This document shows positions 7,884 through 45,959 of a stretch of DNA of 64,000 nt, one piece after another. The DNA is from a virus. A program made the translations under genes and the position numbers. The stretch covers positions 18,956 through 82,955 of IMG/VR virus record IMGVR_UViG_2718218017_000006; one strand, 5' to 3'. Each line of letters begins with the position of its first letter. Within the stretch, counting starts at the first letter, position 1. Below the pieces are notes generated by a model that was not told where the DNA came from, searched no databases, and saw only the letters and a program-made list of their open reading frames with translations.

Positions 7884-9602
7884 TCACCCCTTATTAATAT
7901 GCTTTTTTAGTTTTTGCTCAACTATTTCTCCAAATACTTGAGCAAATTCTCTCGGAGTATCTCCTCCAAAATATTCTGCAAATGTTTCTGCAAATGCTTC
8001 TGCTGGATTTGTTCCTCCATATCTGCTTACCAGTTCAGATATATCTTTAAAACTATACGTATTATCATATTTTTTATTATACTCTAATAATACATCATTT
8101 ATAAAATTTTTGCACCAATTATCACTATCTAATTCATTATTTTCAAACCATTTAAGCGAATCTGCTACATGATGTCCATATTCATGTATAAATGTTTTAT
8201 AACTTTTTGCGTTTGGTATTGTCCATTTGCTTTTAATACATTGTTTAATATATTGCGTATTATAATCCTGATCACAAAAGTATTCACCATTTAGTACAAG
8301 TTCAACTGCTTCTGGATGCTCAGGATAATACCTATAGTATCCTACTGGGGTAATATTAGCTTTTATCTTTATACTAGGTAATTTTACTGGATCTACTTCT
8401 TTAAATCCTTTAAAATAATTATGGAATTTATCTAACCAATTAATTGAAGACTGTAATAATTCTTTATCTATAGGATACTTTCTACTATCAGAGAATTTTA
8501 TATCATAACTCTCTTTTAGATGATCACTTATTTCCTTTTTGTTCTTATATTGAGTATTTATATCTTTTACAGTGCTCCATTTTTGTTCCTTATCCATATT
8601 GACTATTTTATTATCGGCATCATAATTAATTTTAGTTTGAATTTCATCTGGAACGCTAACCTTAATAGAAGTTTTACTATCTCCTTCTTTAACCCATTCA
8701 TCTATATTGGATTTAATTTGAGAATTAACTTTATTTTTACTCCAATCTTTCATAGTCTCAATACATTTTCCAAACTCTTCAATTACTTCTGTCATGTAAC
8801 ATAGACAATTTGGATGCTGGAGTGGTAGATCTTCAGGTTTAAATACCTTGCCATTATACTCGTCACATATATCCATCCTGCCATGCATTCTAGCTGAGTG
8901 GCTTGCACTTAAATTCCACTTAAGCCCTTTACAGAATGGATTTTTCTTTGCATTTTGGATTAAGGTTTCTGTTTGTGCATGAGTTATACTGGTCCTTGCT
9001 AACCTTCTAGCTTGATATGATATATTGTCCCCACCTAGTCCATCAGCAAAAGTCTTAGGCGTAATGCGATTCTTAGGGTTAACATATTTCTCTAGTTCTG
9101 CAGCAAGTTTTTTAACATTGGCACCTTTGGCTATATTGGCTTTTATAATCATGTCAACCTTACTGCCATTGTCACCAGTTATATTCCATAATCTTCTACT
9201 TAATGTCTTACCATCTTTATAATAATTCCCTGCTATAAGCTGCCTTACAGTATCACTTGACACCTTGGTTATAGTCCTCTTTAAAGCTTTGTTTGTGGCT
9301 TCATCAGGCGAAATCATGTCTACAAAGCTAAGCTGTACGCCTTTTTGTATGTCAGAACTTTTTCGGATATTATTTTCAATTGTTTTACTGAGCTTATAAT
9401 AAAGCTCTGCCCTATACTCATTGATTATTTTATATTGTTCTATCTTATGATTTCTAGTTCTGGAATCTGGCATACTTAAGATTTCATCTATAAGTTTATC
9501 CCCGGCATTTTTATAAATATTAAAAAGTTCTTTTTCCTGCTGAAAATTCAGGGCAATAAATTCTTTTCTTGCCTGAAGAACTCTTTTTTCATATTCATTC
9601 AT
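7884..9602 (-). CDS. MuF/SPP1 gp7-type minor head protein with C-terminal zincin-like peptidase domain
   Basis: ARRLARTSITHA and PLQHPNCLCY (MuF); C-terminal FIHEYGHH and AEAFAETFAEYF. Confidence 0.85.
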   Translation of the reverse strand: MNEYEKRVLQARKEFIALNFQQEKELFNIYKNAGDKLIDEILSMPDSRTRNHKIEQYKIINEYRAELYYKLSKTIENNIRKSSDIQKGVQLSFVDMISPDEATNKALKRTITKVSSDTVRQLIAGNYYKDGKTLSRRLWNITGDNGSKVDMIIKANIAKGANVKKLAAELEKYVNPKNRITPKTFADGLGGDNISYQARRLARTSITHAQTETLIQNAKKNPFCKGLKWNLSASHSARMHGRMDICDEYNGKVFKPEDLPLQHPNCLCYMTEVIEEFGKCIETMKDWSKNKVNSQIKSNIDEWVKEGDSKTSIKVSVPDEIQTKINYDADNKIVNMDKEQKWSTVKDINTQYKNKKEISDHLKESYDIKFSDSRKYPIDKELLQSSINWLDKFHNYFKGFKEVDPVKLPSIKIKANITPVGYYRYYPEHPEAVELVLNGEYFCDQDYNTQYIKQCIKSKWTIPNAKSYKTFIHEYGHHVADSLKWFENNELDSDNWCKNFINDVLLEYNKKYDNTYSFKDISELVSRYGGTNPAEAFAETFAEYFGGDTPREFAQVFGEIVEQKLKKHINKG

Positions 9603-9604
9603 AA

Positions 9605-11102
9605 CTATTCACCAGTGTTTAAATTATTATCAACATTATTATTCAATTCACTATTCAATCCTTCAGTAAATGAATCCTCTGCATTACTCAATTGTGTTTT
9701 CTCCTCAAGTATTTCATTGAAAGCTTTTTCGTCGTCTTCCTCATCACTAAACTCTTTAATGTATGATTTCCTCGACCTCACATCAGCTTCGACTTCCAAA
9801 ATCGCAGTTTTCTTCTTTTCATCATCATCAGAAGGGAGAGGGTAATTATGCTTGAAGATGGTTGTATACTTTATACTCAACCATTCAGAGTTAAATATAC
9901 CTTTATAGCATACTGGAGCCACTTCAATAATAAAATTGATTAATGCCAACAAAGGCCTTTCCCAGTCATTCCACTTTTCCTCACACCTAGCTATCAAATC
10001 ATTGTAAAGATAAATCATGGCTTTAGCAGAGGGGATATTATTCAAGTCTGATAATTTAGGCATATCCAGTGCAAAATTCATATCCCTTTCTGTCCTGTCC
10101 AGGTAAGCTTCTATTGCATCAGAATTTCCTATATTGTATTCCATTCTTTGAACTGCAGCTTGTCCCCCATTTTCTACAAGTTCATCTCTGGTTTTTACTG
10201 CATGTAGTGCATTAGGAGCTATAGTGAATTTATTTACATCATCTTCATTACCATCAATCACAACCTCTGAACCAAATAACTGAAACCTCAACGCATCTGC
10301 AAAATCCGATATTCTCCTGTTATATTGGTTTTGAGCATCTTCCAGTTCAGTAACATCAGATTCACCAAAAGAATCATTAAGTTCCCCACCATTTTTAATA
10401 AGCCAGCAGGGTATAGCAGTAAATCCAGTGTCTATATCTATCGTAAGTTCTTCCTGCAGGTCTGTATTTTTATAGGTTTCTTTCTTATACCACGCCTGCC
10501 TTTCTTTTGAATTTTCATTGACTTTATAGTAATAGGTGTGAAGGTAGTAAATCTTATCTGCATCAGCTTCCCTGTATACATTAAGTTCATCCTCTTCAAA
10601 GAACACAACCTTTAATAAAACTCCATTCTTTTCTTTATAGTAAAAATTTTCTATAGTCTCATACTTAAGTACTAAAGGTTGTCCTGGATTAGCTTCTACT
10701 CTAAGCAGTACCCTCTTTTTTACCGTGGATTCTAAAAAAGCCTTTCTTGTATTATTCCAGAAGTTATTATTTTCAAAAATATCCTCTACAAATTTTCTTA
10801 AATCCTCACATTTATCCTTATCTTTAAAATCATCTGGTTTAAATATTAGGGTAGGTTCCTTCCCAAACATCCACCTTGCCTGTTTCCTAAGAAGAGGCTT
10901 TACCTTATTTCTTATATCTTGAGTAGGTTTATAATCGCAATTATCATCTGTCGGCCAGTTTTGGCCATATAATATGGGATCATTTTTAGCTCTCTCTGGA
11001 TCTGCGGATTTCCCTTTATAAAAGATATAATCTCTTCTTACTTTTCTTTCTCCTTTTAATTGTAAATCCTGTAAGTTTTAATGTTGCTGTTTTTATATTC
11101 AC
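9605..11102 (-). CDS. Portal protein (SPP1-type), one frameshift near the 5' end
   Basis: ORF 9605..10870; its frame stays open upstream to about 11070; GTG start at 11102 is in another frame. Confidence 0.8.
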
Positions 11103-18945: not shown

Positions 18946-19267
18946 AGCCTCTATCCACCAACTTTTTATTATGCCTGTGGAATCCCTGGACTATGTCAAA
19001 ATTCTCTCTGAAAAGCTTCGCCAGAATCCCAATACCCACCTGAATAACATCCAGTACCTCTTCCATTATCTTTTTCTTATCTCCAGAGGAGAGAGCTTCA
19101 CACAACTCTCCTGATTCCTCTAAAACTTTATCCTTCCAATCCTCCCAGGTCATTGTACGATTGTCTATCTTATTTCCTCTTCGGTCTATCAATTTCCTAA
19201 GCACCATTAGCTTTAGTTTCAATGTGTTCACCTTCCTAATCAACTTCTGTTTCCAAATTAAATCCAT
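18902..19267 (-). CDS. MazG-like nucleotide pyrophosphohydrolase
   Basis: KVLEESGELCEAL...MEEVLDV (EExxE...EExxD). Confidence 0.75.
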   Translation of the reverse strand: MDLIWKQKLIRKVNTLKLKLMVLRKLIDRRGNKIDNRTMTWEDWKDKVLEESGELCEALSSGDKKKIMEEVLDVIQVGIGILAKLFRENFDIVQGFHRHNKKLVDRGCEACAEVGADVCRR

Positions 19268-28806: not shown

Positions 28807-29198
28807 TTATGTTTCGCCTCCTCCTTCTCCTGCATGGTCGTTCCATACTCTCCAATTCTTTCGAATATTCATCTAAGGGTAGACTCCCTAAATTATCAGT
28901 ATAGTAATCAATGTTTTCATGCGGGTAACATAGTTCTTGAATAATGCTTTGAGCCAATTCTCTGCGTGTTACCTGTGTTCCTGCAAATACACCTATTTTA
29001 ATTTTTCTTGGGTTGGTCATGCTCAATCTCACTCCATCCCCAGTCTAAATAGTCGCAAACCATGTCAAATACAGCTTTTGTAATTTCTTCCTCAGTTGCA
29101 TTTTCACTTAATCCTAACTCCTTTAATGTGTATTCTTCATCATCTAGACTTGCTACAGAAGAACTTACACCTATCTTGATTTTTCTTGAGTTGGTCAT
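28790..29198 (-). CDS. Two adjacent small genes sharing an N-terminal MTNxRKIKIGV sequence
   Basis: 28998..29198 and 28790..29020 (second ATG). Confidence 0.6.
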
Positions 29199-29365
29199 TT
29201 TGTTACCTGCCTTTCTTTGCTTCCCTGCCTCCTATCAAATTCAGATATCAAGTATCCAAGCTCCTCATGCGTTAATTCCTCGGATACAGCATCTGCAAGA
29301 AGTATAGAAAACTTTTTAACAAGTTCTGTCCTGTCCTTCGGTAGTGATACAACTGCTGAATACAT
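29195..29365 (-). CDS. 56-aa protein, paralog of 37738..37899 (absent from ORF track)
   Basis: Manual translation MYSAVVSLPKDRTELVKKFSILLADAVSEELTHEELGYLISEFDRRQGSKERQVTK; AGGAGG RBS. Confidence 0.75.
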   Translation of the reverse strand: MYSAVVSLPKDRTELVKKFSILLADAVSEELTHEELGYLISEFDRRQGSKERQVTK

Positions 29366-31025: not shown

Positions 31026-31301
31026 TCACACGACCTCCTTTTGAGTTTCCTTTGTTATCTGTTTGGCAACTTTATCATCAAAAAAAATATTATTAAAGAA
31101 GATAAAAGCAGGATCTTTTTTAAAAATTTTGCTAATCTTATACATCTCACTCTCCGAAAAATCGGCATACCCATTTTCTTTCCTGTTATACGTAGACTCT
31201 GATATGCCAATTTTCCTAGCTATATCAGACTGCTTTAAATTATTTTCCACTCTTAACCCTTTTAATTTAAAGTTAGCCTTTCTCTTTTCCAATACTTTCA
31301 C
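31026..31301 (-). CDS. Cro-like regulator
   Basis: LKGLRVENNLKQSDIARKIGISESTYNRKENG. Confidence 0.85.
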   Translation of the reverse strand: MKVLEKRKANFKLKGLRVENNLKQSDIARKIGISESTYNRKENGYADFSESEMYKISKIFKKDPAFIFFNNIFFDDKVAKQITKETQKEVV

Positions 31302-31313
31302 CTCATTTCTTTT

Positions 31314-31461
31314 TGTTATCCATATGGTAACTTTATTGTATTATACATTTGGCAACTTGTCAATAACTTTTAATAAGAAATATTTTATTTTTGGCAACTT
31401 AGATTTTATTTTTGGCAACTACATGCTATTATAATTTTAAAGAGGTGTTATTATGGCAACT
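31314..31461. promoter_or_regulatory. cro/cI divergent promoters with repeated GGCAAC operators
   Basis: Minus TTGACA(31363)-17-TACAAT(31340); TTTGGCAACT at 31348, 31390, 31411 and 31062; TGGCAACT over the cI start codon. Confidence 0.75.
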
Positions 31462-31878
31462 TTTAATCAAAGAATGAAAGAACTTAGAGCAGAAAAAAAT
31501 ATAACATTAGAAGAATTAGCAAAAGTTTTAAATACAACTAAATCTACTTTATCGAGGTATGAAAATAATTTGAGAACTCCAAATGCAGATTTTATAAACC
31601 AATTGGCCAAATATTTTAACGTATCCTTAGATTATCTTCTGGGTAATACCGATAAAAAAGAACCAGAAATCAATATTCCAAAGGAATATACAGATAAATA
31701 CAAAATTACTTCTCGTGATAAAAAGCAATATTTAGAACATATGAAAAAAGCAAATGAAGCTTTCTTTATGAATGATGAATTTGACGAAGAGGATAAAAAA
31801 GAAATATTAGATACAATGGCAGAAATATTTTGGAAGGCTAAAGCAATGAATAAAAGAAAACCTAAAGAAGGTAAGTAG
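31453..31878 (+). CDS. CI-like (ImmR-type) repressor
   Basis: N-terminal XRE HTH, divergent from cro, followed by ImmA-type protease. Confidence 0.85.
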   Translation: MATFNQRMKELRAEKNITLEELAKVLNTTKSTLSRYENNLRTPNADFINQLAKYFNVSLDYLLGNTDKKEPEINIPKEYTDKYKITSRDKKQYLEHMKKANEAFFMNDEFDEEDKKEILDTMAEIFWKAKAMNKRKPKEGK

Positions 31879-31886
31879 GTGGTCTG

Positions 31887-32342
31887 ATGATAAATATTCA
31901 TGCAAGAGTTAAACACTTAATTCAAAAATACGGCACAAGAGATCCTGAAAAACTTGCAAGGGAATTAAAAATAACAATAATTAAAAGACCTTTTAAAAAA
32001 ACTATGGGATTTTTTAAAAAAGACTTAGGTAAAAAATTTGTAATAGTAAACTCAAATCTAGATGAATTCATACAAAGATTAGTATTAGCACACGAATTAG
32101 GACACGCCTTACTACATTCTAGTAATCAAACCTCATACATACATGAATACACACTCTTCCCTAGAGGTAGAGTTGAAATAGAAGCTAATAAATTCGCAGC
32201 AGAACTTTTAATTGATGAAGCTGAAATTGACAAATGCTATTTAGAAAACATGTGCACAAGCCAAGTCGCATCATATTTTGGAGTCCCTAAAAAACTAGTT
32301 GAATATAAATTTGATAAATATATAATACACAGGGAAGGATAG
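31887..32342 (+). CDS. immA: ImmA/IrrE metallopeptidase (anti-repressor)
   Basis: LAHELGHALLH, EIEANKFAAELLI. Confidence 0.9.
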   Translation: MINIHARVKHLIQKYGTRDPEKLARELKITIIKRPFKKTMGFFKKDLGKKFVIVNSNLDEFIQRLVLAHELGHALLHSSNQTSYIHEYTLFPRGRVEIEANKFAAELLIDEAEIDKCYLENMCTSQVASYFGVPKKLVEYKFDKYIIHREG

Positions 32343-33514: not shown

Positions 33515-34315
33515 TTAATACACCTTTTCAGAAGAAGTTTTGTCAAATGAAACCTTTGATTTAATGATGAAAATTAAAGATATAATAGCGACTACTAAAA
33601 CTATACCCTCTATTAAAAATATACTTTTGATCTTTCCTGCTTGATACAAAGCAGCAGGAAAATCAATTATAGCATGGATTATTATAGCATATAAAAGATA
33701 TATTTTCTTCCCTTTTTTAATTCCATATAACACCACAAGAGATAGAGCTATATGTAATGGCAGTACCAGCATTCTTTCTATACCTATAAACCCAAACATA
33801 TAATATGGAGTGTTCTCTAAGCTATTTTTTATTGATGCTAACATACTAACAGGAATCTTAGCACTAAGAACTTTTTCAAAAGTACCAGAGTTTATTAAAT
33901 TTGAATATACTATATTTTGTATACCTGCAACTCCACCTATTAATATAGCCTCTATTCCACCATGGCCTATACCATAGGCAATTCCATCTTTCCATTCTCT
34001 TTGATCTTTAAGTAAAAACTTAAAACCAATATATCTACCCACTTCTTCAAATATTCCTGCTGCAAGTCCTCCATAAATCATAAATAGCCATGGATTCTTT
34101 AATAATGCTACGGTGTTAGGGTTCTTTGTTAATACAAAATAATGTAATGCTTTTTCTAAAACCTGAGAAAATATTATAAATATTAATACTCCTATAAATA
34201 CACATTTTATTGATATTTTATACTTTTTATAAAAGTAAGCTACTAACACTAAAGGTAACCCAACTGAAATAATTAGAGATATAATTAAGAACATAATTGA
34301 TGTATTACTTACCAT
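33515..34315 (-). CDS. yhfC: YhfC-family intramembrane metalloprotease
   Basis: Multi-TM; AGIFEEVGRY, GIGHGGIE, IHAIIDF. Confidence 0.85.
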   Translation of the reverse strand: MVSNTSIMFLIISLIISVGLPLVLVAYFYKKYKISIKCVFIGVLIFIIFSQVLEKALHYFVLTKNPNTVALLKNPWLFMIYGGLAAGIFEEVGRYIGFKFLLKDQREWKDGIAYGIGHGGIEAILIGGVAGIQNIVYSNLINSGTFEKVLSAKIPVSMLASIKNSLENTPYYMFGFIGIERMLVLPLHIALSLVVLYGIKKGKKIYLLYAIIIHAIIDFPAALYQAGKIKSIFLIEGIVLVVAIISLIFIIKSKVSFDKTSSEKVY

Positions 34316-34395: not shown

Positions 34396-35358
34396 TTATT
34401 GTGGTGGATTACATACTTTACAAGGTTCATAGCCTTCTGCTTTTGCTTCTGATAAGAATACAGCCGTAGAACTGTTTTTTATTGTTCTGCAACCAGCATT
34501 ATGGTACTTGTGACCTGTGGGTGTTATATATACTGTTGTTCCCTGATTATCTGACGAAGCACTTTGCTGTACAGTGCTTTGCTGTGTTGCAGAACTATTG
34601 CTTTGATCCGAACTACTATTTCCAGCACTACTGCTATCACTAATTTGACTGGTACTAGATGTGCTTGTCCCAATATCGCTTCCGGCACTGCTATTATTTA
34701 CTTGAGCTATGGTATCCCCCTTTGTAGTTCCATTTATATTTATTGCCCATAATCCCCTGCTGCTATCTCTAGCATTTGCACAGAAATTCTTAAAATATTC
34801 GGCATATTTTACATTAGGTTGTACAGTCATCTGCTGAGCATATCCATTGTAAGCTAATATAGCATTAAACATCTTATTTCTAATTTCATCATCCGTTATT
34901 TCATCATCCGTTATTTCAGTAGGCGGCTGAATCCATACATACCTTAAAAGTCTGCCATAAGTATCTGTATCCCCTGTATCTTTCTCAAGATATACGGTTT
35001 TTCCTACTAATTGTGACTTGGTATAGTTAGAGGCTTCTTCTCCATATTCTTCATGTTGTGTTGTACTTTCTGGAGTATTCACCCCTATTAATCTGACCTT
35101 TTGATATTGACCATCTTTTGTTGTTACTCCGATTGTATCTCCATCTATTCCTTTAGTTACACTAACTGTTTCTAATTGTATTGGAGATTTAGAAGTATCC
35201 GCAGTCGTGTTCTTGGTAGATGTAGTTTTAGATGCGCTTTGCTGTGTTGAGGTACTACTATTGGAGCTAGTTTTGGTATCATCCGAACATCCTGCTACTG
35301 AAGTTAAAAACGTAAAAATTACAATTACAAAAAGAAGTTTATTAACAAGTCTTTTCAT
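34396..35358 (-). CDS. Thermonuclease (SNase) lipoprotein with C-terminal Zn-binding domain
   Basis: Lipobox VAGC; DGDTI, VRLIGVNTPE, DTYGRLLRYVW; C-terminal TGHKYHNAGC...PCKVC. Confidence 0.9.
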   Translation of the reverse strand: MKRLVNKLLFVIVIFTFLTSVAGCSDDTKTSSNSSTSTQQSASKTTSTKNTTADTSKSPIQLETVSVTKGIDGDTIGVTTKDGQYQKVRLIGVNTPESTTQHEEYGEEASNYTKSQLVGKTVYLEKDTGDTDTYGRLLRYVWIQPPTEITDDEITDDEIRNKMFNAILAYNGYAQQMTVQPNVKYAEYFKNFCANARDSSRGLWAININGTTKGDTIAQVNNSSAGSDIGTSTSSTSQISDSSSAGNSSSDQSNSSATQQSTVQQSASSDNQGTTVYITPTGHKYHNAGCRTIKNSSTAVFLSEAKAEGYEPCKVCNPPQ

Positions 35359-35589
35359 TTTGATTTATCCCCCTTATTTTCCTTTAATAAACTTTCACAC
35401 TAGGTATTTCTACGTATATTTCTAAAATCCTCCTAAAAGTGATAAAAAATCTAATTATTTAGGACATAATATTTATACAAAAGATACATTATTAAACTAT
35501 AAGAATTTATAAAATTCTTATAAAAATCTATCAAACTTTCAAGAAATAAAACTTAATTTTCTTAAATTTTATTTCTTTTGTAAAATATA

Positions 35590-35618
35590 GCAGGAAAATT
35601 GAATATCTTGTAGAATTT
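35590..35618 (+). promoter_or_regulatory. Sigma-H-like promoter upstream of agrD
   Basis: GCAGGAAAA-11-GTAGAATTT matches RnAGGAwWW-N11-12-RnnGAATww. Confidence 0.6.
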
Positions 35619-35652
35619 ATACATTAAAACGTTTTAAGGAGGTATATGGCAA

Positions 35653-35796
35653 ATGAAATTCTCCAAAGAAAGGCTATTAAGGAAAAGTATGAAAATAGTA
35701 GGTTCGTTGTTTCTATTTCTAGCAACAATAGTTATAGTTCCAACATCAATAGGTGTTGGCCATCAGCCAAAATGTCCTGATGAATTTCTAAGATAA
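35653..35796 (+). CDS. agrD: AgrD-like cyclic autoinducing peptide precursor, 47 aa (absent from ORF track)
   Basis: MKFSKERLLRKSMKIVGSLFLFLATIVIVPTSIGVGHQPKCPDEFLR: basic/amphipathic leader and QPKxPxxLx tail; AAGGAGG RBS; upstream of GHKL kinase. Confidence 0.85.
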   Translation: MKFSKERLLRKSMKIVGSLFLFLATIVIVPTSIGVGHQPKCPDEFLR

Positions 35797-35902
35797 TCAA
35801 TTAATTTTTTATAAATGTTGTAGTTAAAATTTCTATAAAAACGTAAGAATATTAACCTACAGCATTTATAAAATATCTTAAAAAAACAAAGGAGGAATTC
35901 AT

Positions 35903-37219
35903 ATGTACTTGATTGCAAGAGAAATAATACTGGATATTATTGAAGCATTACTTCTTTTAGGAATTTTTCAAGCATTATATAATAAAAAGAAATTTATAAT
36001 ACAGCATAAGATTAGATCAGTATTATTTTGTATACTATATGTTTTTATAGCTTATTGTATTACATTCAATGTAACATTAACTTATCACTCTTTAATTCTT
36101 ATAATTTTATATATTTTATTACTTTCTTACATTACAAAAATAAGAATTTTTGATTCTACAATTATAGTTTGCTTGCTTTTTACAATAGTTTTCAGTACAG
36201 AATTTCTTATTGAAATAATTGAACTATTTATATTAAAAGTAAATTTAAATCAACTAGTTTCAAATTCTACATATTTATCGAGCATTATTTTAATTTCAAA
36301 GTTATTACAAATTTTTATTGTAGCAATGATTTTAAAATTTAACTCATATTTTACTAAACTTAAATTATTTGAAAAAGAAGGGGCTATTTTCGCCAACTTA
36401 ATAATTGAATTAGGTGTATTTTCTACATTCATATTTTGTGTTAACTTTGGTATTTTCCATATAAAAAATATCGAAACCTATAATATTATTATTTTTATAA
36501 TTTATTTTATATTTTTAGTGGCAAAATTCAGAAGCTTAAAAGAAAGACAGCTGGCCGTAAATATAAATATCAATTATAAAATCCAAGAGCAGCAAATTAA
36601 AAATATGGAGGAAATAATAAGTATCATAAGGCAAGAAAAACATGATTTTGCCAACCATATAAATGTTATACAAGGACTGTGTTTATTAAACAAGCCTGAT
36701 ACCGTAGAGAAGATAGATAGTTATGTACGAAAAATTTCAGGTACAATACATTCCTCTTTTAGGTATTTGGATACAGGAAATGATTACATAGATGGTATGT
36801 TATCCATAAAAAATAACTATGCAATGAAAAACAATATTGATTTTAAAGTTATAATTGATGAACCTTTCAGCTCAATAAAAATTAGAGAAGACGAATTGAT
36901 AAGTATTATGAGTAATCTTATAGACAATGCATTTGAAGCATTCACTAAATCAGATGTTGGAAATAAAGAAATATCCATCACCACTTTTAAGGAAGACACA
37001 AACTTTTGTATTGAGATAGCCGACAATGGGGATGTTATCCCTGAAAATATAATAGAAAAAATTTTCAATAGAGGTTTTTCTACAAAAGTTAAACAAAATG
37101 ATCTTCATGGATTCGGATTGTATATTATTAAACAATTAGTTGAAAAAAATAATGGGACTATATCCGTAGAAAGTATTCCAGGAAAAACTAAGTTTGTGAT
37201 AAAGTTTAGAATGGATTAA
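35903..37219 (+). CDS. agrC: AgrC/VirS-like membrane sensor histidine kinase
   Basis: Multi-TM N-terminus; RQEKHDFANH H-box; SNLIDNAFEA, DNG, GFSTK, GFGLYI. Confidence 0.9.
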   Translation: MYLIAREIILDIIEALLLLGIFQALYNKKKFIIQHKIRSVLFCILYVFIAYCITFNVTLTYHSLILIILYILLLSYITKIRIFDSTIIVCLLFTIVFSTEFLIEIIELFILKVNLNQLVSNSTYLSSIILISKLLQIFIVAMILKFNSYFTKLKLFEKEGAIFANLIIELGVFSTFIFCVNFGIFHIKNIETYNIIIFIIYFIFLVAKFRSLKERQLAVNININYKIQEQQIKNMEEIISIIRQEKHDFANHINVIQGLCLLNKPDTVEKIDSYVRKISGTIHSSFRYLDTGNDYIDGMLSIKNNYAMKNNIDFKVIIDEPFSSIKIREDELISIMSNLIDNAFEAFTKSDVGNKEISITTFKEDTNFCIEIADNGDVIPENIIEKIFNRGFSTKVKQNDLHGFGLYIIKQLVEKNNGTISVESIPGKTKFVIKFRMD

Positions 37220-37367
37220 ATAGATAAAGCTCTTACATAGAAAAGTAACTAAAATATGGTATAATATTTACCAAGAGAATAAAAATGTTTTTAGTTAGTC
37301 ACCTTCCGGAATTTATCTCTTACAAAGAGGTCGTTGCGGTTAATAGACAGCAGAGGAGGTGGCAAAT

Positions 37368-37547
37368 TTGAGTGAAACTATCATTGCATTAGGATTTATA
37401 TGTGTCACATCACTTGGCTTAACAGCTATGGTGATTATAGGAACATATTTAAAAGATAGACTTGAAATCAAAGGTAAGTCTTCAGTTCACAAGTTAACTG
37501 AAAATGAAATTTCTATAACTGCTGAAGATAAAAACTCAAAAAACTAA
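37368..37547 (+). CDS. Small single-TM protein, candidate type I toxin (likely TTG start)
   Basis: Hydrophobic N-half, charged tail; GGAGG 8 nt before TTG; own extended -10 at 37257. Confidence 0.5.
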   Translation: MSETIIALGFICVTSLGLTAMVIIGTYLKDRLEIKGKSSVHKLTENEISITAEDKNSKN

Positions 37548-37577
37548 AAATGCACCTTTCCTACAAAGTGCATTTTT
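37546..37577. terminator. Bidirectional hairpin
   Basis: AAAAATGCAC-N12-GTGCATTTTT. Confidence 0.7.
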
Positions 37578-37737
37578 AAACGCTAAAAATAGTTAACTTT
37601 AAAAACCGTAACGGCTTCTTTTAAATATATTATACCACAATTATATTAAATTTAAACTTGTTTAACCTTAATTTTAAAATCAAATTATAAGATGTTTATG
37701 TAGCTATAGTTAATCATTTTATCCTCTTTTAAGTAAT

Positions 37738-37899
37738 TTATTTAGTATTTTTAATATTTTCTCTCCTATCAAATTCAGAGATTAAATATCCAAGCTCCTC
37801 ATATGTCAGTTCTTCTGTCACTGCATCTGCAAGAAGTTCTGCATATCTTTTTTTCAGTTCTTCTTTATTCTTTGGAATTGAGATAATAACTGAATACAT
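37738..37899 (-). CDS. 53-aa protein divergent from integrase (candidate directionality factor or regulator)
   Basis: Manual translation MYSVIISIPKNKEELKKRYAELLADAVTEELTYEELGYLISEFDRRENIKNTK; AGGAG RBS. Confidence 0.7.
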   Translation of the reverse strand: MYSVIISIPKNKEELKKRYAELLADAVTEELTYEELGYLISEFDRRENIKNTK

Positions 37900-38012
37900 T
37901 CAAACAACTCCTGTATTAAAGACATATCCATCTTATGTTATGTTAGACTTACTAATATTGTTACTTCACACTAAATAATTTTAAGTTTGTAAAAAATGAT
38001 ATAATAAAATAA

Positions 38013-40016
38013 ATGCTACAAAGGGGGTTAAAAGTAATGCTAAAGGTAGCTATATACAGCAGAAAATCAAAGTTTACCGGCAAGGGGGATTCTGTAGAAA
38101 ATCAAATAGAAATGTGTAAACAGTATATTATAAATCATTTAGAGGGAGATGTTGATTTTTTAATTTATGAAGATGAAGGCTTTAGTGGCAGCACAATAAA
38201 CAGGCCTCAATTTAAAAAACTAATTCAAGACATAAAACTTAAAAAAATAAATTATTTAGTATGTTACAGATTGGATCGTATCAGCAGAAATGTATCTGAT
38301 TTTTCCTCTACTTTAGAATTATTGCAAAATTACAATGTAAGTTTTATAAGTATAAAGGAGCAGTTTGACACTTCTACACCTATGGGAAAGGCTATGATAT
38401 ATATTGCCAGTGTCTTTGCACAGTTAGAAAGAGAGACGATCGCAGAACGTGTAAAAGATAATATGCTTGAGTTAGCTAAGAATGGTAGATGGACCGGAGG
38501 GAAAATACCCTTAGGATTTACTTCTAAAAGAAAAAAATACAGAGATAAATCTGGTTTAGAAAGAGAATTTTCTATTCTTGAAATAAATAAGGAAGAAATG
38601 GACTTTGTTAAATTTTTATATGAAAAATATTTAGAAGTTGGTAGCCTCCATAAGTTAGAAGTATATATGACTGAAAATCAAATAAAATCAAAAAATAATA
38701 TTTTATTTGAAAAATCTACTTTAAAAATCATCCTCCAGAATCCTATATATGTAAAAGCTAATGCGGCAGTAATTGGATATTTGGAATCGAATGGATGGAA
38801 TATTTATGGTGAAGCAGATAATATTCATTCTCTACTCACATATAATAAAACTAGACAAGTAATAAGAAATGGTAAGCGTACTAAATCCCTAAATCCCGAA
38901 AGTGAACGCTTTGCTTCTGTAAGCAATATAACGGGAGCACTGGAGCCTGAACTATGGTTAAAGGTTCAAAATCAATTTGATAGAAATAAAGATACTTTCC
39001 CTAGATTAGGTAAAACCCATAATGCTTTATTAACTGGTAAATTAAAATGTGGCCGGTGTAAAGAATATATGTTAGTACAACATGGCAGAGTTTCTAAACT
39101 TACCGGAGAAAAACTCTTTTATTATGTATGCTCATTAAAACGAAAATCACACAAGAAATTTTGTGATAATAAAAATGCTAAAGCTGCAGAGCTTGAAAGT
39201 TTAGTATTGTTAAGTTTAAAAAAGCTAGGCAATGAACAAAAACAATTTATGGACAGATTGAAAGAAAATTATAATTCTAAATTAAAAGATGATAGCAAAA
39301 GCGAAAAAATGTTACTAGATAAAGCTTTAACCGAAAAGAAAAATCAAATCGACAATCTACTAAATATGCTTTCAAAAAGTAAGGATATAGAAGATGTAAT
39401 GATTGATAAAATTAAATCTATAAAAAATGAATGCATAGAAATCGAAAAGAGGCTAACTGTTCTTGATGATGAAAGTAAAAAGGATAAAGTAGAAAAAATC
39501 AACTTAGATCTAATAGAAAATATATTATGTGATTGTGCAGTAATAGATGAGCTCCCACGTGTCAAACAAAAGCAAATTATTAATACATTGATAGATGTTA
39601 TATACTGGTACGGAGACAAAAACAACAACGGAAAAGTATTTATAAAATTTATAGGCTCTGATAAAGATGATTTTGAAGAAATTGAATTGCCTGATATAGA
39701 TTTTTCCAATACTATGTTGCAGTTTTGTTCACCTAGCACATGCAGTATGAACAAAACTGCAACATATAGAAATGTATTTAAAGATATTGAAAACTCTACC
39801 TCTACAGTATATTATACACTTCCTGAAAGAACAATTGCACAAAAAATTTATAAATTAAGAATGATCAAAGGATATACCCAACGTGAATTTGCTAAAGTTT
39901 GTTCTATAGGCTATTCTTCTTTATGTAAATATGAAATAGGGAAATCAAAACCTAAGCGTGTTAATTTGGAGAAGATATGCCAAACTTTTAATATGTCTAT
40001 TGATTATTTTTTATAA
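38013..40016 (+). CDS. Large serine recombinase (integrase) with in-frame C-terminal XRE HTH
   Basis: AIYSRKS, YEDEGFSG, YRLDRISR, recombinase domain, CGRC Zn ribbon; C-terminal IYKLRMIKGYTQREFAK...KYEIG. Confidence 0.95.
   Translation: MLQRGLKVMLKVAIYSRKSKFTGKGDSVENQIEMCKQYIINHLEGDVDFLIYEDEGFSGSTINRPQFKKLIQDIKLKKINYLVCYRLDRISRNVSDFSSTLELLQNYNVSFISIKEQFDTSTPMGKAMIYIASVFAQLERETIAERVKDNMLELAKNGRWTGGKIPLGFTSKRKKYRDKSGLEREFSILEINKEEMDFVKFLYEKYLEVGSLHKLEVYMTENQIKSKNNILFEKSTLKIILQNPIYVKANAAVIGYLESNGWNIYGEADNIHSLLTYNKTRQVIRNGKRTKSLNPESERFASVSNITGALEPELWLKVQNQFDRNKDTFPRLGKTHNALLTGKLKCGRCKEYMLVQHGRVSKLTGEKLFYYVCSLKRKSHKKFCDNKNAKAAELESLVLLSLKKLGNEQKQFMDRLKENYNSKLKDDSKSEKMLLDKALTEKKNQIDNLLNMLSKSKDIEDVMIDKIKSIKNECIEIEKRLTVLDDESKKDKVEKINLDLIENILCDCAVIDELPRVKQKQIINTLIDVIYWYGDKNNNGKVFIKFIGSDKDDFEEIELPDIDFSNTMLQFCSPSTCSMNKTATYRNVFKDIENSTSTVYYTLPERTIAQKIYKLRMIKGYTQREFAKVCSIGYSSLCKYEIGKSKPKRVNLEKICQTFNMSIDYFL
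39713..39766. other. attP-like serine-integrase site inside the integrase ORF
   Basis: Perfect 19-bp inverted repeat TATGTTGCAGTTTTGTTCA/TGAACAAAACTGCAACATA around a GCA-CA-TGC core. Confidence 0.75.
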
Positions 40017-45064: not shown

Positions 45065-45892
45065 TCATCTTTTGATATCATAATATTCTATAGTTTTATC
45101 ATTTATCCTAGTTGCAATACTTATCCTATTAAACTCAACTTCATTTTCTGATATAGTTTTCAATTCTATATTTTCTACTGAAACTATTTTTAATTTTTTA
45201 TCAACTGCTTCTGGTTTCACTGCTAAGTTTTTATTTCTATTTAACGCAACAGATGGATATTCGTATGCCTCACATCCCGGCATATCGAAAAAATTTTTCG
45301 CGAGCATATTAGAAATTCTATATAAATATTCTATACCTTTACCAACATCTCTAGTGAACTCTGTATAGAAAAATTGATCTATTATTGTACTATTTATTTT
45401 CCCTTGTTCATTTAAAGACGTATCATTTGGATTTGTTCCTCCACCAATAACATATGCTAATAGCTTTAACCCTTCACGTACTTCATAACAAATAGCAGTG
45501 TATTTGCCTCCCACTTTTGCCTTTACCTCATAAAAAGGAGTTATTTGGTCATTTGAGACATATAACATACTTTCTCCAACGTCATTTAACCTACCCATTT
45601 TAGTAACAAGGTGTTTGGGTTTATAACTAAGTTCATTTATATTTTCATAGTTTTTTCCAAAATATTCTCTTACCCTATAAAATTTAGAACCAGATATATA
45701 AGAACGGCTACCCACATTACAACACGGTATTGTTTCTAAGGTTAGATTAAACAATTTTTTATTTGATATTCTCTTTAAATCTATTTTTTTATATCTTTCC
45801 AGCATAGATAATATTTCCATAGTAGGAATAGTGTTTAATGGATTATGTTTTTTTCTAAATTCTAAAATTAAATTTTCTATATGATCTTTCAT
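45065..45892 (-). CDS. RES-domain protein
   Basis: FYRVR, GRLNDVGESMLYVS, FYEV, YPSVA...NLA. Confidence 0.75.
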   Translation of the reverse strand: MKDHIENLILEFRKKHNPLNTIPTMEILSMLERYKKIDLKRISNKKLFNLTLETIPCCNVGSRSYISGSKFYRVREYFGKNYENINELSYKPKHLVTKMGRLNDVGESMLYVSNDQITPFYEVKAKVGGKYTAICYEVREGLKLLAYVIGGGTNPNDTSLNEQGKINSTIIDQFFYTEFTRDVGKGIEYLYRISNMLAKNFFDMPGCEAYEYPSVALNRNKNLAVKPEAVDKKLKIVSVENIELKTISENEVEFNRISIATRINDKTIEYYDIKR

Positions 45893-45959
45893 ATTAACTC
45901 CCTAGAATTATAATTTAATATTATAGTTCTACTAATTCTACAAAATATTAAAAAATCCT

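Follow-up and report, generated by a model that had tools for sequence, protein, structure and literature searches.

In Clostridium autoethanogenum, two agr systems lacking agrA have been described (Piatek et al. 2022, PMC8748961), System 1 being formed by agrD1-agrC1-agrB1 together with a spo0E-like gene and System 2 by agrD2-agrC2, with AgrB1 proposed to process both peptides, that is, to act in trans for System 2; the paper makes no mention of phages. The C. difficile phage phiCDHM1 carries in turn agr3, consisting of agrD, agrB and agrC without a response regulator, for which signalling via a host regulator was proposed, and Paenibacillus phages with agr genes are cited in the same report (PMC3901668), in agreement with what a sequence-only reading of the DNA studied here had stated on phiCDHM1. 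Here we analyse a cassette of agrD and an AgrC-like kinase gene at positions 35653 to 37219 of a 64,000-nucleotide stretch of the IMG/VR virus record IMGVR_UViG_2718218017_000006 (positions 18,956 to 82,955 of that record; the whole stretch is called the window), which is also found in a Clostridium genome designated G000. The cassette resides in a myovirus-type prophage, in its lysogeny module and ~2 kb inside its right end. The protein family and the agrA-less layout are already published, while the novelty is the presence of an agr pherotype module devoid of both agrB and agrA on a prophage. With a probability of about 0.5, what the prophage carries is a functional version of the regulator-less agr module typical of the C. 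kluyveri/C. ljungdahlii group, whose peptide would be matured in trans and sensed by the cassette's own kinase, with Spo0A as the output.

As in System 2 of C. autoethanogenum, agrD is followed by an AgrC-like kinase gene of the same protein family without agrB or agrA, and further features shared with Systems 1 and 2 are the proposal of a single core AgrB for all AgrDs, the spo0E-like gene beside the core locus, and a conserved P-x-x-P tail combined with unique 5-membered rings. On the contrary, the cassette studied here lies in prophage lysogeny modules, belongs to an accessory group accompanied by a toxin-antitoxin (TA)-like gene and to a family with five copies per genome, and the signalling partner that was left open for C. 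autoethanogenum is here pointed by context to Spo0A. phiCDHM1 is likewise a temperate phage with host-derived agr genes near its integrase and no response regulator. Nonetheless, it has its own agrB, which the cassette lacks, the two kinases are 34% identical over 40% of their length, and the cassette, unlike that of phiCDHM1, recurs across several prophage lineages with pherotype-like diversification.

Quorum sensing by phages of Firmicutes is known almost wholly as RRNPP type, with cytoplasmic receptors, and the agr-type phage cases named in the literature examined are phiCDHM1 and a few Paenibacillus phages, none of them mechanistically resolved. Rap-Phr and other RRNPP systems of Bacillus and other Firmicutes prophages manipulate the initiation of sporulation (Bernard et al., PMC8027211; bioRxiv 10.1101/2021.07.15.452460). 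The cassette resembles them in concept, since in both cases a peptide signal of host origin on a prophage is predicted to act on the Spo0A pathway and is clustered with sporulation regulators, spo0E for example. It is not a member of RRNPP, since receptors of this class are cytoplasmic TPR proteins for imported linear peptides, while the cassette encodes a membrane histidine kinase and a cyclic peptide predicted to be made by AgrB. For the same reason it differs from arbitrium (AimR-AimP-AimX), and neither an AimR TPR receptor, nor a linear Opp-imported peptide, nor aimX was seen in the lysogeny module. In the literature searched, the idea of a prophage peptide that hijacks sporulation was not found combined in this form with a regulator-less phage agr system.

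The agrD-kinase cassette

The two genes of the cassette are as follows.

35653..35796, + strand: agrD, 47-aa autoinducing-peptide (AIP) precursor (TIGR04223 match; alignment with 4 paralogues and ~32 orthologues)
35903..37219, + strand: AgrC-like sensor histidine kinase, 438 aa (Pfam, hydropathy and AF2 helices)

The sequence-only reading had noticed an unannotated 47-aa AgrD-like open reading frame (ORF) with a strong ribosome-binding site, and both its coordinates and its nature proved exact: TIGR04223 (NCBIfam AgrD) matches it with 32.4 bits (E 7e-8; cut-off 19), a six-frame search of the genome with the same model scores it at 31.3 bits, and the motif AAGGAGG stands 10 nt 5' of the ATG, while Pfam returns no match for this ORF. 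It is not a chance ORF, given that ~37 homologous AgrD genes occupy the same position 5' of homologous kinases. The precursor shows a basic N-terminus, a hydrophobic leader (KD19 maximum 2.34), the stretch PTSIGVG and the tail HQPKCPDEFLR, the latter being the predicted AgrB-recognition tail, and a 5-residue ring S-I-G-V-G starting at Ser32 is predicted, presumably closed as a Ser lactone. The absence of Cys claimed earlier applies to the ring region PTSIGVG, but not to the whole peptide, which contains a Cys within the invariant tail QPKCPDE; this tail, Cys included, is a family constant that AgrB would remove.

The kinase gene starts 107 nt after agrD and encodes a 7-transmembrane (TM) sensor (approximately residues 1-212), a DHp domain of Spo0B/CitA type with H247, and a classical HATPase_c domain. 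The seven helices are predicted by both hydropathy and an AF2 model, which is of mediocre quality (pLDDT 66.5) and was used for helix counting only. Pfam scores are 41.5 bits for the SPOB_a-type DHp (PF14689), 72.3 bits for HATPase_c and 46.4 bits for HATPase_c_5, and none of the H, N, G1, F and G2 boxes is disrupted, so the earlier identification of an AgrC-like kinase holds. Its core is nevertheless not of the HPK10 type, as HATPase_c outscores HATPase_c_5, the DHp belongs to the SPOB_a type and, among NCBIfam models, DcuS/MalK matches best; the CA domain of S. aureus AgrC (4bxi) is matched with only E 7.6e-4, ranking behind WalK, ZraS and SrrB. Compared with the canonical AgrC encoded in its own genome (agrBD/CA locus), the kinase is 30% identical full-length (residues 17-422) and 34% over the kinase core, and both share the H-box HDFxNHxNxIQG. 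It is through its polytopic sensor, its position beside agrD and the co-variation of sensor and ring that it corresponds to AgrC.

The agr system of S. aureus is agrBDCA, and in S. intermedius/pseudintermedius the AIP is a Ser lactone, with Ser replacing Cys as the ring nucleophile. The cassette resembles staphylococcal agr in AgrD layout, 5-residue ring, AgrB-type maturation (probable here), polytopic receptor kinase and hypervariable ring and sensor, and departs from that of S. aureus in having neither AgrA nor RNAIII, a classical HATPase_c instead of the HPK10 type, and the order agrD-agrC(-agrB).

Regarding its position, the cassette is co-oriented with cI and int and flanked by cI/ImmA on the left and a large serine integrase on the right, Pfam confirming all three neighbours named in the sequence-only reading. 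The lack of agrB and agrA also stands, since in whole-genome searches neither the window nor the prophage next to it yielded an AgrB, a LytTR or a receiver domain. An Rfam scan of 35200-38100 gave nothing meaningful.

Family, pherotypes and peptide maturation

Seven AgrD-like peptides and three AgrBs are encoded in the genome, which comprises 4.45 Mb and a further contig of 58.6 kb. The kinase has four paralogues, 73-80% identical to it, and since a same-type agrD stands before every one of them, there are five agrD-kinase pairs in total; this multiplicity, the membership in a published genus-wide family and the AgrB of the host core locus were missing from the sequence-only reading.

Copy win, 3.761 Mb of G000:C1 (the window): prophage A, without AgrB
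Copy c2, 3.815 Mb: second, tandem prophage, with cro, cI, agrD, kinase, 62-aa ORF (92% identical) and serine integrase (38% identical)
Copy c3, 2.10 Mb: chromosomal, without AgrB
Copy c4, 3.87 Mb: core locus agrD-kinase-agrB amid housekeeping genes, with a Spo0E-like gene (PF09388) ~1.1 kb past agrB
Copy c5, 3.45 Mb: chromosomal, without AgrB

The core locus c4 lies ~105 kb downstream of the cassette and is syntenic in 4 other species. It is the only one of the five pairs with an AgrB of the matching family beside it, and this AgrB keeps the catalytic motif GGYHA...C and has as its own substrate an AgrD that also shows Ser at the ring position. Because the sole matching AgrB is at the core locus and the leader and tail of the phage AgrD are family constants, maturation by the host AgrB is the economical reading, and the core AgrB probably matures the phage AgrD in trans. 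The earlier proposal that the phage makes and senses its own peptide stands insofar as both agrD and kinase are phage genes, but the phage would not make the peptide alone. YhfC, an intramembrane protease encoded to the left of the cassette, was considered as an AgrB substitute or AIP maturase and rejected, as a 96%-identical copy occurs on the agr-less contig C2 and the second type of agr-carrying prophage lacks it. In paralogue c5, the AgrD (G000:C1:3453560-3453715) presents a frameshift in an A8 run, by which the normal N-terminus is lost and a 35-aa ORF is left; this frameshift, like a similar A-run one in a regulator at 0.42 Mb, is either genuine (a pseudogene or a phase variant) or an artefact of sequencing through a homopolymer.

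Relatives of the kinase are present in 17 of the 19 other Clostridium species searched, with at most 5 full-length copies per genome. The genomic relatives number roughly 475, among them ones in C. ljungdahlii, C. ragsdalei, C. drakei, C. tyrobutyricum, C. algifaecis, C. estertheticum and other species, and the majority of the family resides on chromosomes. Prophage-borne cassettes were found in six prophages of four species (two here, two in G011, one in G015 and one in 'Ca. Clostridium eludens') with two integrase types and the shared order repressor ... agrD, kinase, small ORF, integrase, and the same module with its TA-like gene also sits at the non-phage chromosomal sites c3, L022 and L026. 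A maximum-likelihood tree built from 58 distinct kinases groups five of the six prophage-borne ones with one chromosomal copy (support 85/95) and nests this group in a larger accessory clade (14 rows, 98/94) that takes in the sixth prophage kinase as well as every copy linked to the small ORF save one, and that is separate from the core-locus clade (100/100). Phylogeny against the chromosomal loci, which the sequence-only reading had put forward as a check, sets the prophage copies apart from the core locus, though not from every chromosomal copy. Altogether, the prophage copies appear to be a mobile lineage within the accessory group of a genus-wide regulator-less agr family.

Alignment of the ~37 AgrDs shows that the leader and the tail [HY]QPKCP[DE]E[LF]L[KR] are near-invariant, while the five residues before the tail vary freely. 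Ring position 1 is Ser in most AgrDs, and Cys in about a dozen relatives and in paralogues c3 and c5. This alternation of Ser and Cys at one position identifies the column of the ring nucleophile and makes a Ser lactone, as already suggested by the sequence-only reading, the sensible reading for the phage peptide. The rings are SIGVG in the window, SSMVG in the tandem prophage and SIGGG in the host core locus. Among the paralogues, identity amounts to 61-72% in the sensor domain against 77-95% in the kinase domain, and dN/dS values are 0.27-0.51 for the sensor and 0.06-0.16 for the kinase domain, prophage-to-prophage comparisons included. The low values in the kinase domain, along with the variable ring and sensor, indicate that the phage kinase is functionally constrained and that the peptide diversifies jointly with the sensor. 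Such a conserved kinase, coupled to a ring and a sensor that are both hypervariable, is the classical pherotype pattern.

The phage ring SIGVG and the core ring SIGGG (G000:C1:3871349-3871492) are one residue apart, which could allow cross-talk or antagonism. Cross-group inhibition occurs between staphylococcal agr pherotypes, and the phage peptide might analogously act as an antagonist or mimic on the host core AgrC, or the phage kinase might eavesdrop on the host peptide. Such signal interference, compatible with the reading of the cassette as a working module and fitting the pherotype pattern and the closeness of both rings, is quite unlikely, since in the two other species having both loci the phage and core rings are not nearly identical, and the phage sensor resembles the core sensor (62%) no more than it does the others.

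Output regulator and proposed pathway

The sequence-only reading had proposed an output through a host regulator, either a LytTR protein or Spo0A. The first part agrees with the lack of a regulator in the phage and, between both candidates, genomic context favours Spo0A. When the two REC-LytTR regulators of this genome were used as tblastn queries, none of the 58 distinct family kinases examined turned out to have a LytTR regulator next to it, and the only regulators adjoining them are of Spo0A type. Spo0E-like genes (PF09388) accompany the kinase family at at least 14 loci. C. psychrophilum shows the order Spo0E-like gene, agrD, kinase, agrB and Spo0A paralogue (REC plus Spo0A_C, 139.5 bits), in C. 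estertheticum a Spo0A paralogue is directly upstream of a family kinase, and at a third locus a Spo0A-like receiver follows AgrB (the three Spo0A-type neighbours being at L087, L089 and L093). The psychrophilic clostridia of the C. psychrophilum and C. estertheticum group (L087, L089, L093, L137-L151) have 3-6 Spo0A_C-containing proteins per genome; two full Spo0A paralogues and one receiver-only copy adjoin family agr kinases.

The promoter region of agrD is a further element of this context:

35592..35618, + strand: sigma-H-type promoter (AGGAAAA, 11 nt, GTAGAAT) 5' of agrD, exact consensus match

With the consensus RNAGGAWWW-N11-12-RNNGAATWW, the window contains 3 exact matches against 0.64 expected. 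The element and ~90 nt around it are kept 5' of agrD in copies win, c2 and c3, as well as in many relatives, with variants in c4 and c5, while a promoter scan found no good sigma-70 promoter on the + strand 5' of agrD. Spo0E-like and Spo0A neighbours, together with this sigma-H-type promoter, favour Spo0A over AgrA as the putative output.

An output through a LytTR regulator of AgrA type encoded elsewhere in the host, following classical agr wiring, is the alternative to be considered here, and a rather doubtful one. This genome has four LytTR proteins, one of which pairs with the canonical AgrC (agrBD/CA locus, 4.08 Mb) and one of which has no receiver domain. The candidates would be the canonical AgrA or the AgrA-like REC+LytTR regulator at 0.42 Mb (G000:C1:418928-419650), and in their favour are the full-length homology of the kinase to the canonical AgrC, which adjoins a REC+LytTR AgrA and has the same H-box, and the conservation of the AgrA-like regulator with its own kinase in G000, G011 and G015. 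However, the canonical locus already has its own AgrC, the regulator at 0.42 Mb is frameshifted here in an A-run and split after residue ~68, no LytTR gene was found next to the 58 kinases examined, Piatek et al. (PMC8748961) found no agrA for it either, and the Spo0E/Spo0A context points elsewhere. An orphan-looking LytTR regulator at 3.27 Mb was rejected as a partner, because it adjoins a 7TMR-DISM/His_kinase (LytS-like) gene and has no relative at E 1e-20 in G011, which carries five kinase copies. A CheY-like regulator 2.2 kb upstream of the relative L042 was likewise discarded, being part of a CheC/GGDEF unit and not of the cassette.

Considering that (i) the phage AgrD has the invariant leader and QPKCPDE tail, (ii) the phage sensor has diverged along with the ring, and (iii) the kinase domain is almost unchanged from its host paralogues, which argues for signalling to the same host regulator as theirs, the following pathway is proposed. 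In lysogens, the cassette would be transcribed from the sigma-H-type promoter, and the host core AgrB would recognise leader and tail and release a five-membered Ser-lactone peptide with ring SIGVG. The phage 7-TM kinase would detect this peptide as its own and act on the host regulator shared with the paralogues, most likely Spo0A directly. The prophage would in this way add a private pherotype channel to the transition-state and sporulation decision of its host. A more far-reaching version can be put forward only tentatively: each prophage lineage of the C. kluyveri group might hold a private AIP-receptor pair, parasitise the host AgrB and converge on Spo0A, with co-resident prophages reporting the density of their own lysogens and jointly timing sporulation or the transition state, and possibly their own induction.

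Several observations weigh against the proposed Spo0A pathway and a working cassette. The link to Spo0A comes from gene neighbourhood in distant relatives, whose kinases are 55-60% identical, and most Spo0A paralogues in the genomes of those relatives are not beside a family kinase. The H-box of the DHp domain is very like that of the canonical AgrC, which pairs here with a LytTR AgrA, leaving room for cross-talk with AgrA. The sigma-H assignment is a consensus match only. In two related prophages the kinase is a pseudogene, with one TAA in L024 and three TGA in L066, from which it follows that the phage can do without it. Neither the kinase nor an alignment of 15 sequences retrieved a relative when IMG/VR was scanned. 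Finally, the evidence on expression consists of index shares only: four mud metatranscriptome runs of one study contain 0.39-0.75 of the sampled 31-mers of 35400-37700, while none of these runs is among those listed for the portal/head stretch 7900-10200 (lowest listed share 0.16), a pattern that fits expression of the cassette in lysogens.

The sequence-only reading had also suggested an arbitrium-like cue. In such a use, the peptide would report lysogen density and directly bias lysis-lysogeny or induction. The location in the lysogeny module co-oriented with cI and int, the cassette of the second prophage directly downstream of cI, the recurrence in six prophages, which represent four species and two integrase types and differ from one another in their rings, and the two tandem prophages here with different peptide-sensor pairs would all be in agreement with such use. 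On the contrary, neither a regulator nor a receiver domain is encoded by the prophages; the window shows no enrichment of 0A boxes (14 versus 9.3 expected), with none in the cI/cro intergenic region, nor was any found in the agrD promoter region. In addition, the module also occupies non-phage sites with its TA-like gene, most of the family is chromosomal and the kinase is broken in two related prophages, so that a direct role in the switch is unlikely and the earlier suggestion finds no support.

The module has shed agrB and agrA, appears to rely on the host for maturation and output, and diversifies in a pherotype-like manner even between co-resident prophages. As to which regulator is addressed by the orphan AgrC kinases of industrial acetogens and chain-elongating clostridia, the comparative data offer a testable answer, Spo0A being indicated. 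If this is true, prophages would take part in the sporulation and solvent/acid decisions of fermentation bacteria of C. kluyveri type. Should the private-pherotype reading be true as well, the cassette would constitute an agr-type counterpart of phage RRNPP communication, and for the clostridial agr family without regulators an output regulator would have been identified for the first time.

Mobile block and neighbouring genes

The cassette shares a conserved block with a third gene, whose locus looks like a type I TA module, its function being suggested by its anatomy.

35536..37688 (~2.15 kb), + strand: mobile block of promoter, agrD, kinase and TA-like gene (blastn against L019, L020, L024 and L054; tblastn)
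37238..37656, no strand assigned: type I toxin-antitoxin-like module (alignment of 10 copies; promoter and terminator scan)

The block keeps 81-88% nucleotide identity between prophages with differing integrases (38% aa identity) and cI (46% aa identity). Its TA-like module displays a sense extended -10 promoter (37238-37265), then a conserved leader of ~95 nt, an ORF at 37359..37547 encoding 62 aa with a TM segment and a charged tail, and further a bidirectional terminator (37544-37579) as well as an extended -10 promoter in convergent antisense orientation (37656-37629). The 62-aa ORF has no match in Pfam or PHROGs, and ESM Atlas gave unnamed clusters only. Type I TA loci stabilise C. difficile prophages (PMC7699646). 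We regard the TA-like module as a passenger in its own right, which accompanies the agr cassette both in prophages and on the chromosome.

The cassette might itself be a functionless passenger, that is, a hitch-hiking and decaying copy held by the adjacent TA-like gene, as the pseudogenised kinases of L024 and L066, the frameshifted N-terminus of the c5 AgrD and the movement of the cassette as a block with a TA-like addiction gene might suggest. This is nonetheless very improbable, because the kinase of the window is intact in every catalytic motif, purifying selection on the kinase domain is strong (omega of 0.06-0.16 between prophage copies), and the cassette is present in metatranscriptome assemblies.

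The remaining genes around the cassette are the following.

31026..31301, - strand: cro-like HTH gene, divergent from cI (Pfam)
31453..31878, + strand: cI-type repressor (Pfam HTH_3/Phage_CI_repr)
31887..32342, + strand: ImmA/IrrE metalloprotease (Pfam Peptidase_M78)
33515..34315, - strand: YhfC intramembrane protease (Pfam)
34396..35358, - strand: secreted SNase lipoprotein (Pfam)
38013..40016, + strand: large serine integrase (Pfam Resolvase/Recombinase/Zn_ribbon_recom plus C-terminal HTH_19)

An HSDR_N protein is also encoded left of the cassette, alongside the cro-like, cI and ImmA genes, and portal, head-morphogenesis, major-head and tail-sheath genes are found further left in the window. 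The YhfC and SNase genes, which the other agr-carrying prophage type lacks, appear to be neighbouring morons outside the agr module. A 53-aa ORF at 37738-37899 (- strand), divergent from the integrase and with no family match, has by tblastn a 66%-identical paralogue at 29195-29365 (- strand) in the early region of the same prophage.

The right end of the prophage was placed at ~39745, within the 3' end of the integrase ORF, by comparison with two 95%-identical integrases, to which similarity ends after ...SPSTC and whose ORFs stop 10 codons further on. The integrase ORF of the window is thus a hybrid, its last ~90 codons (XRE HTH) being read in frame from the integration target (39700-40016). 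Since similarity stops at ~39745 and the ORF reads on into the target, attP would overlap the 3' end of int, and integration would alter the C-terminus of the integrase.

Megablast of the lysogeny module against public phage records found nothing, and tblastn of the kinase against the same records returned only kinase-domain matches of at most 34%, phiCDHM1 AgrC included. Contig C2 of genome G000 (58.6 kb) is phage- or phage-plasmid-like and carries no agr genes. On this contig, the portal (42% identical), major head (49%), head-morphogenesis (28%) and recombinase/SbcC-like (93%) proteins have homologues, and cI-like genes, a serine integrase (46%) and the copy of the YhfC protease (96%) are encoded as well.

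The second prophage stands in tandem to the right (G000:C1:3789480-3818900, locus L054), and the window holds its lysis, tail and tape-measure genes (43400-64000). Its lysogeny module, outside the window, contains its own agrD with ring SSMVG, a kinase, the same small ORF and a different serine integrase, and this kinase is 80% identical overall to that of the window, with 64% in the sensor and 95% in the kinase domain. Another exact sigma-H match is found in its lysis region at 45933-45959 (- strand), just upstream of a 275-aa ORF (45065..45892).

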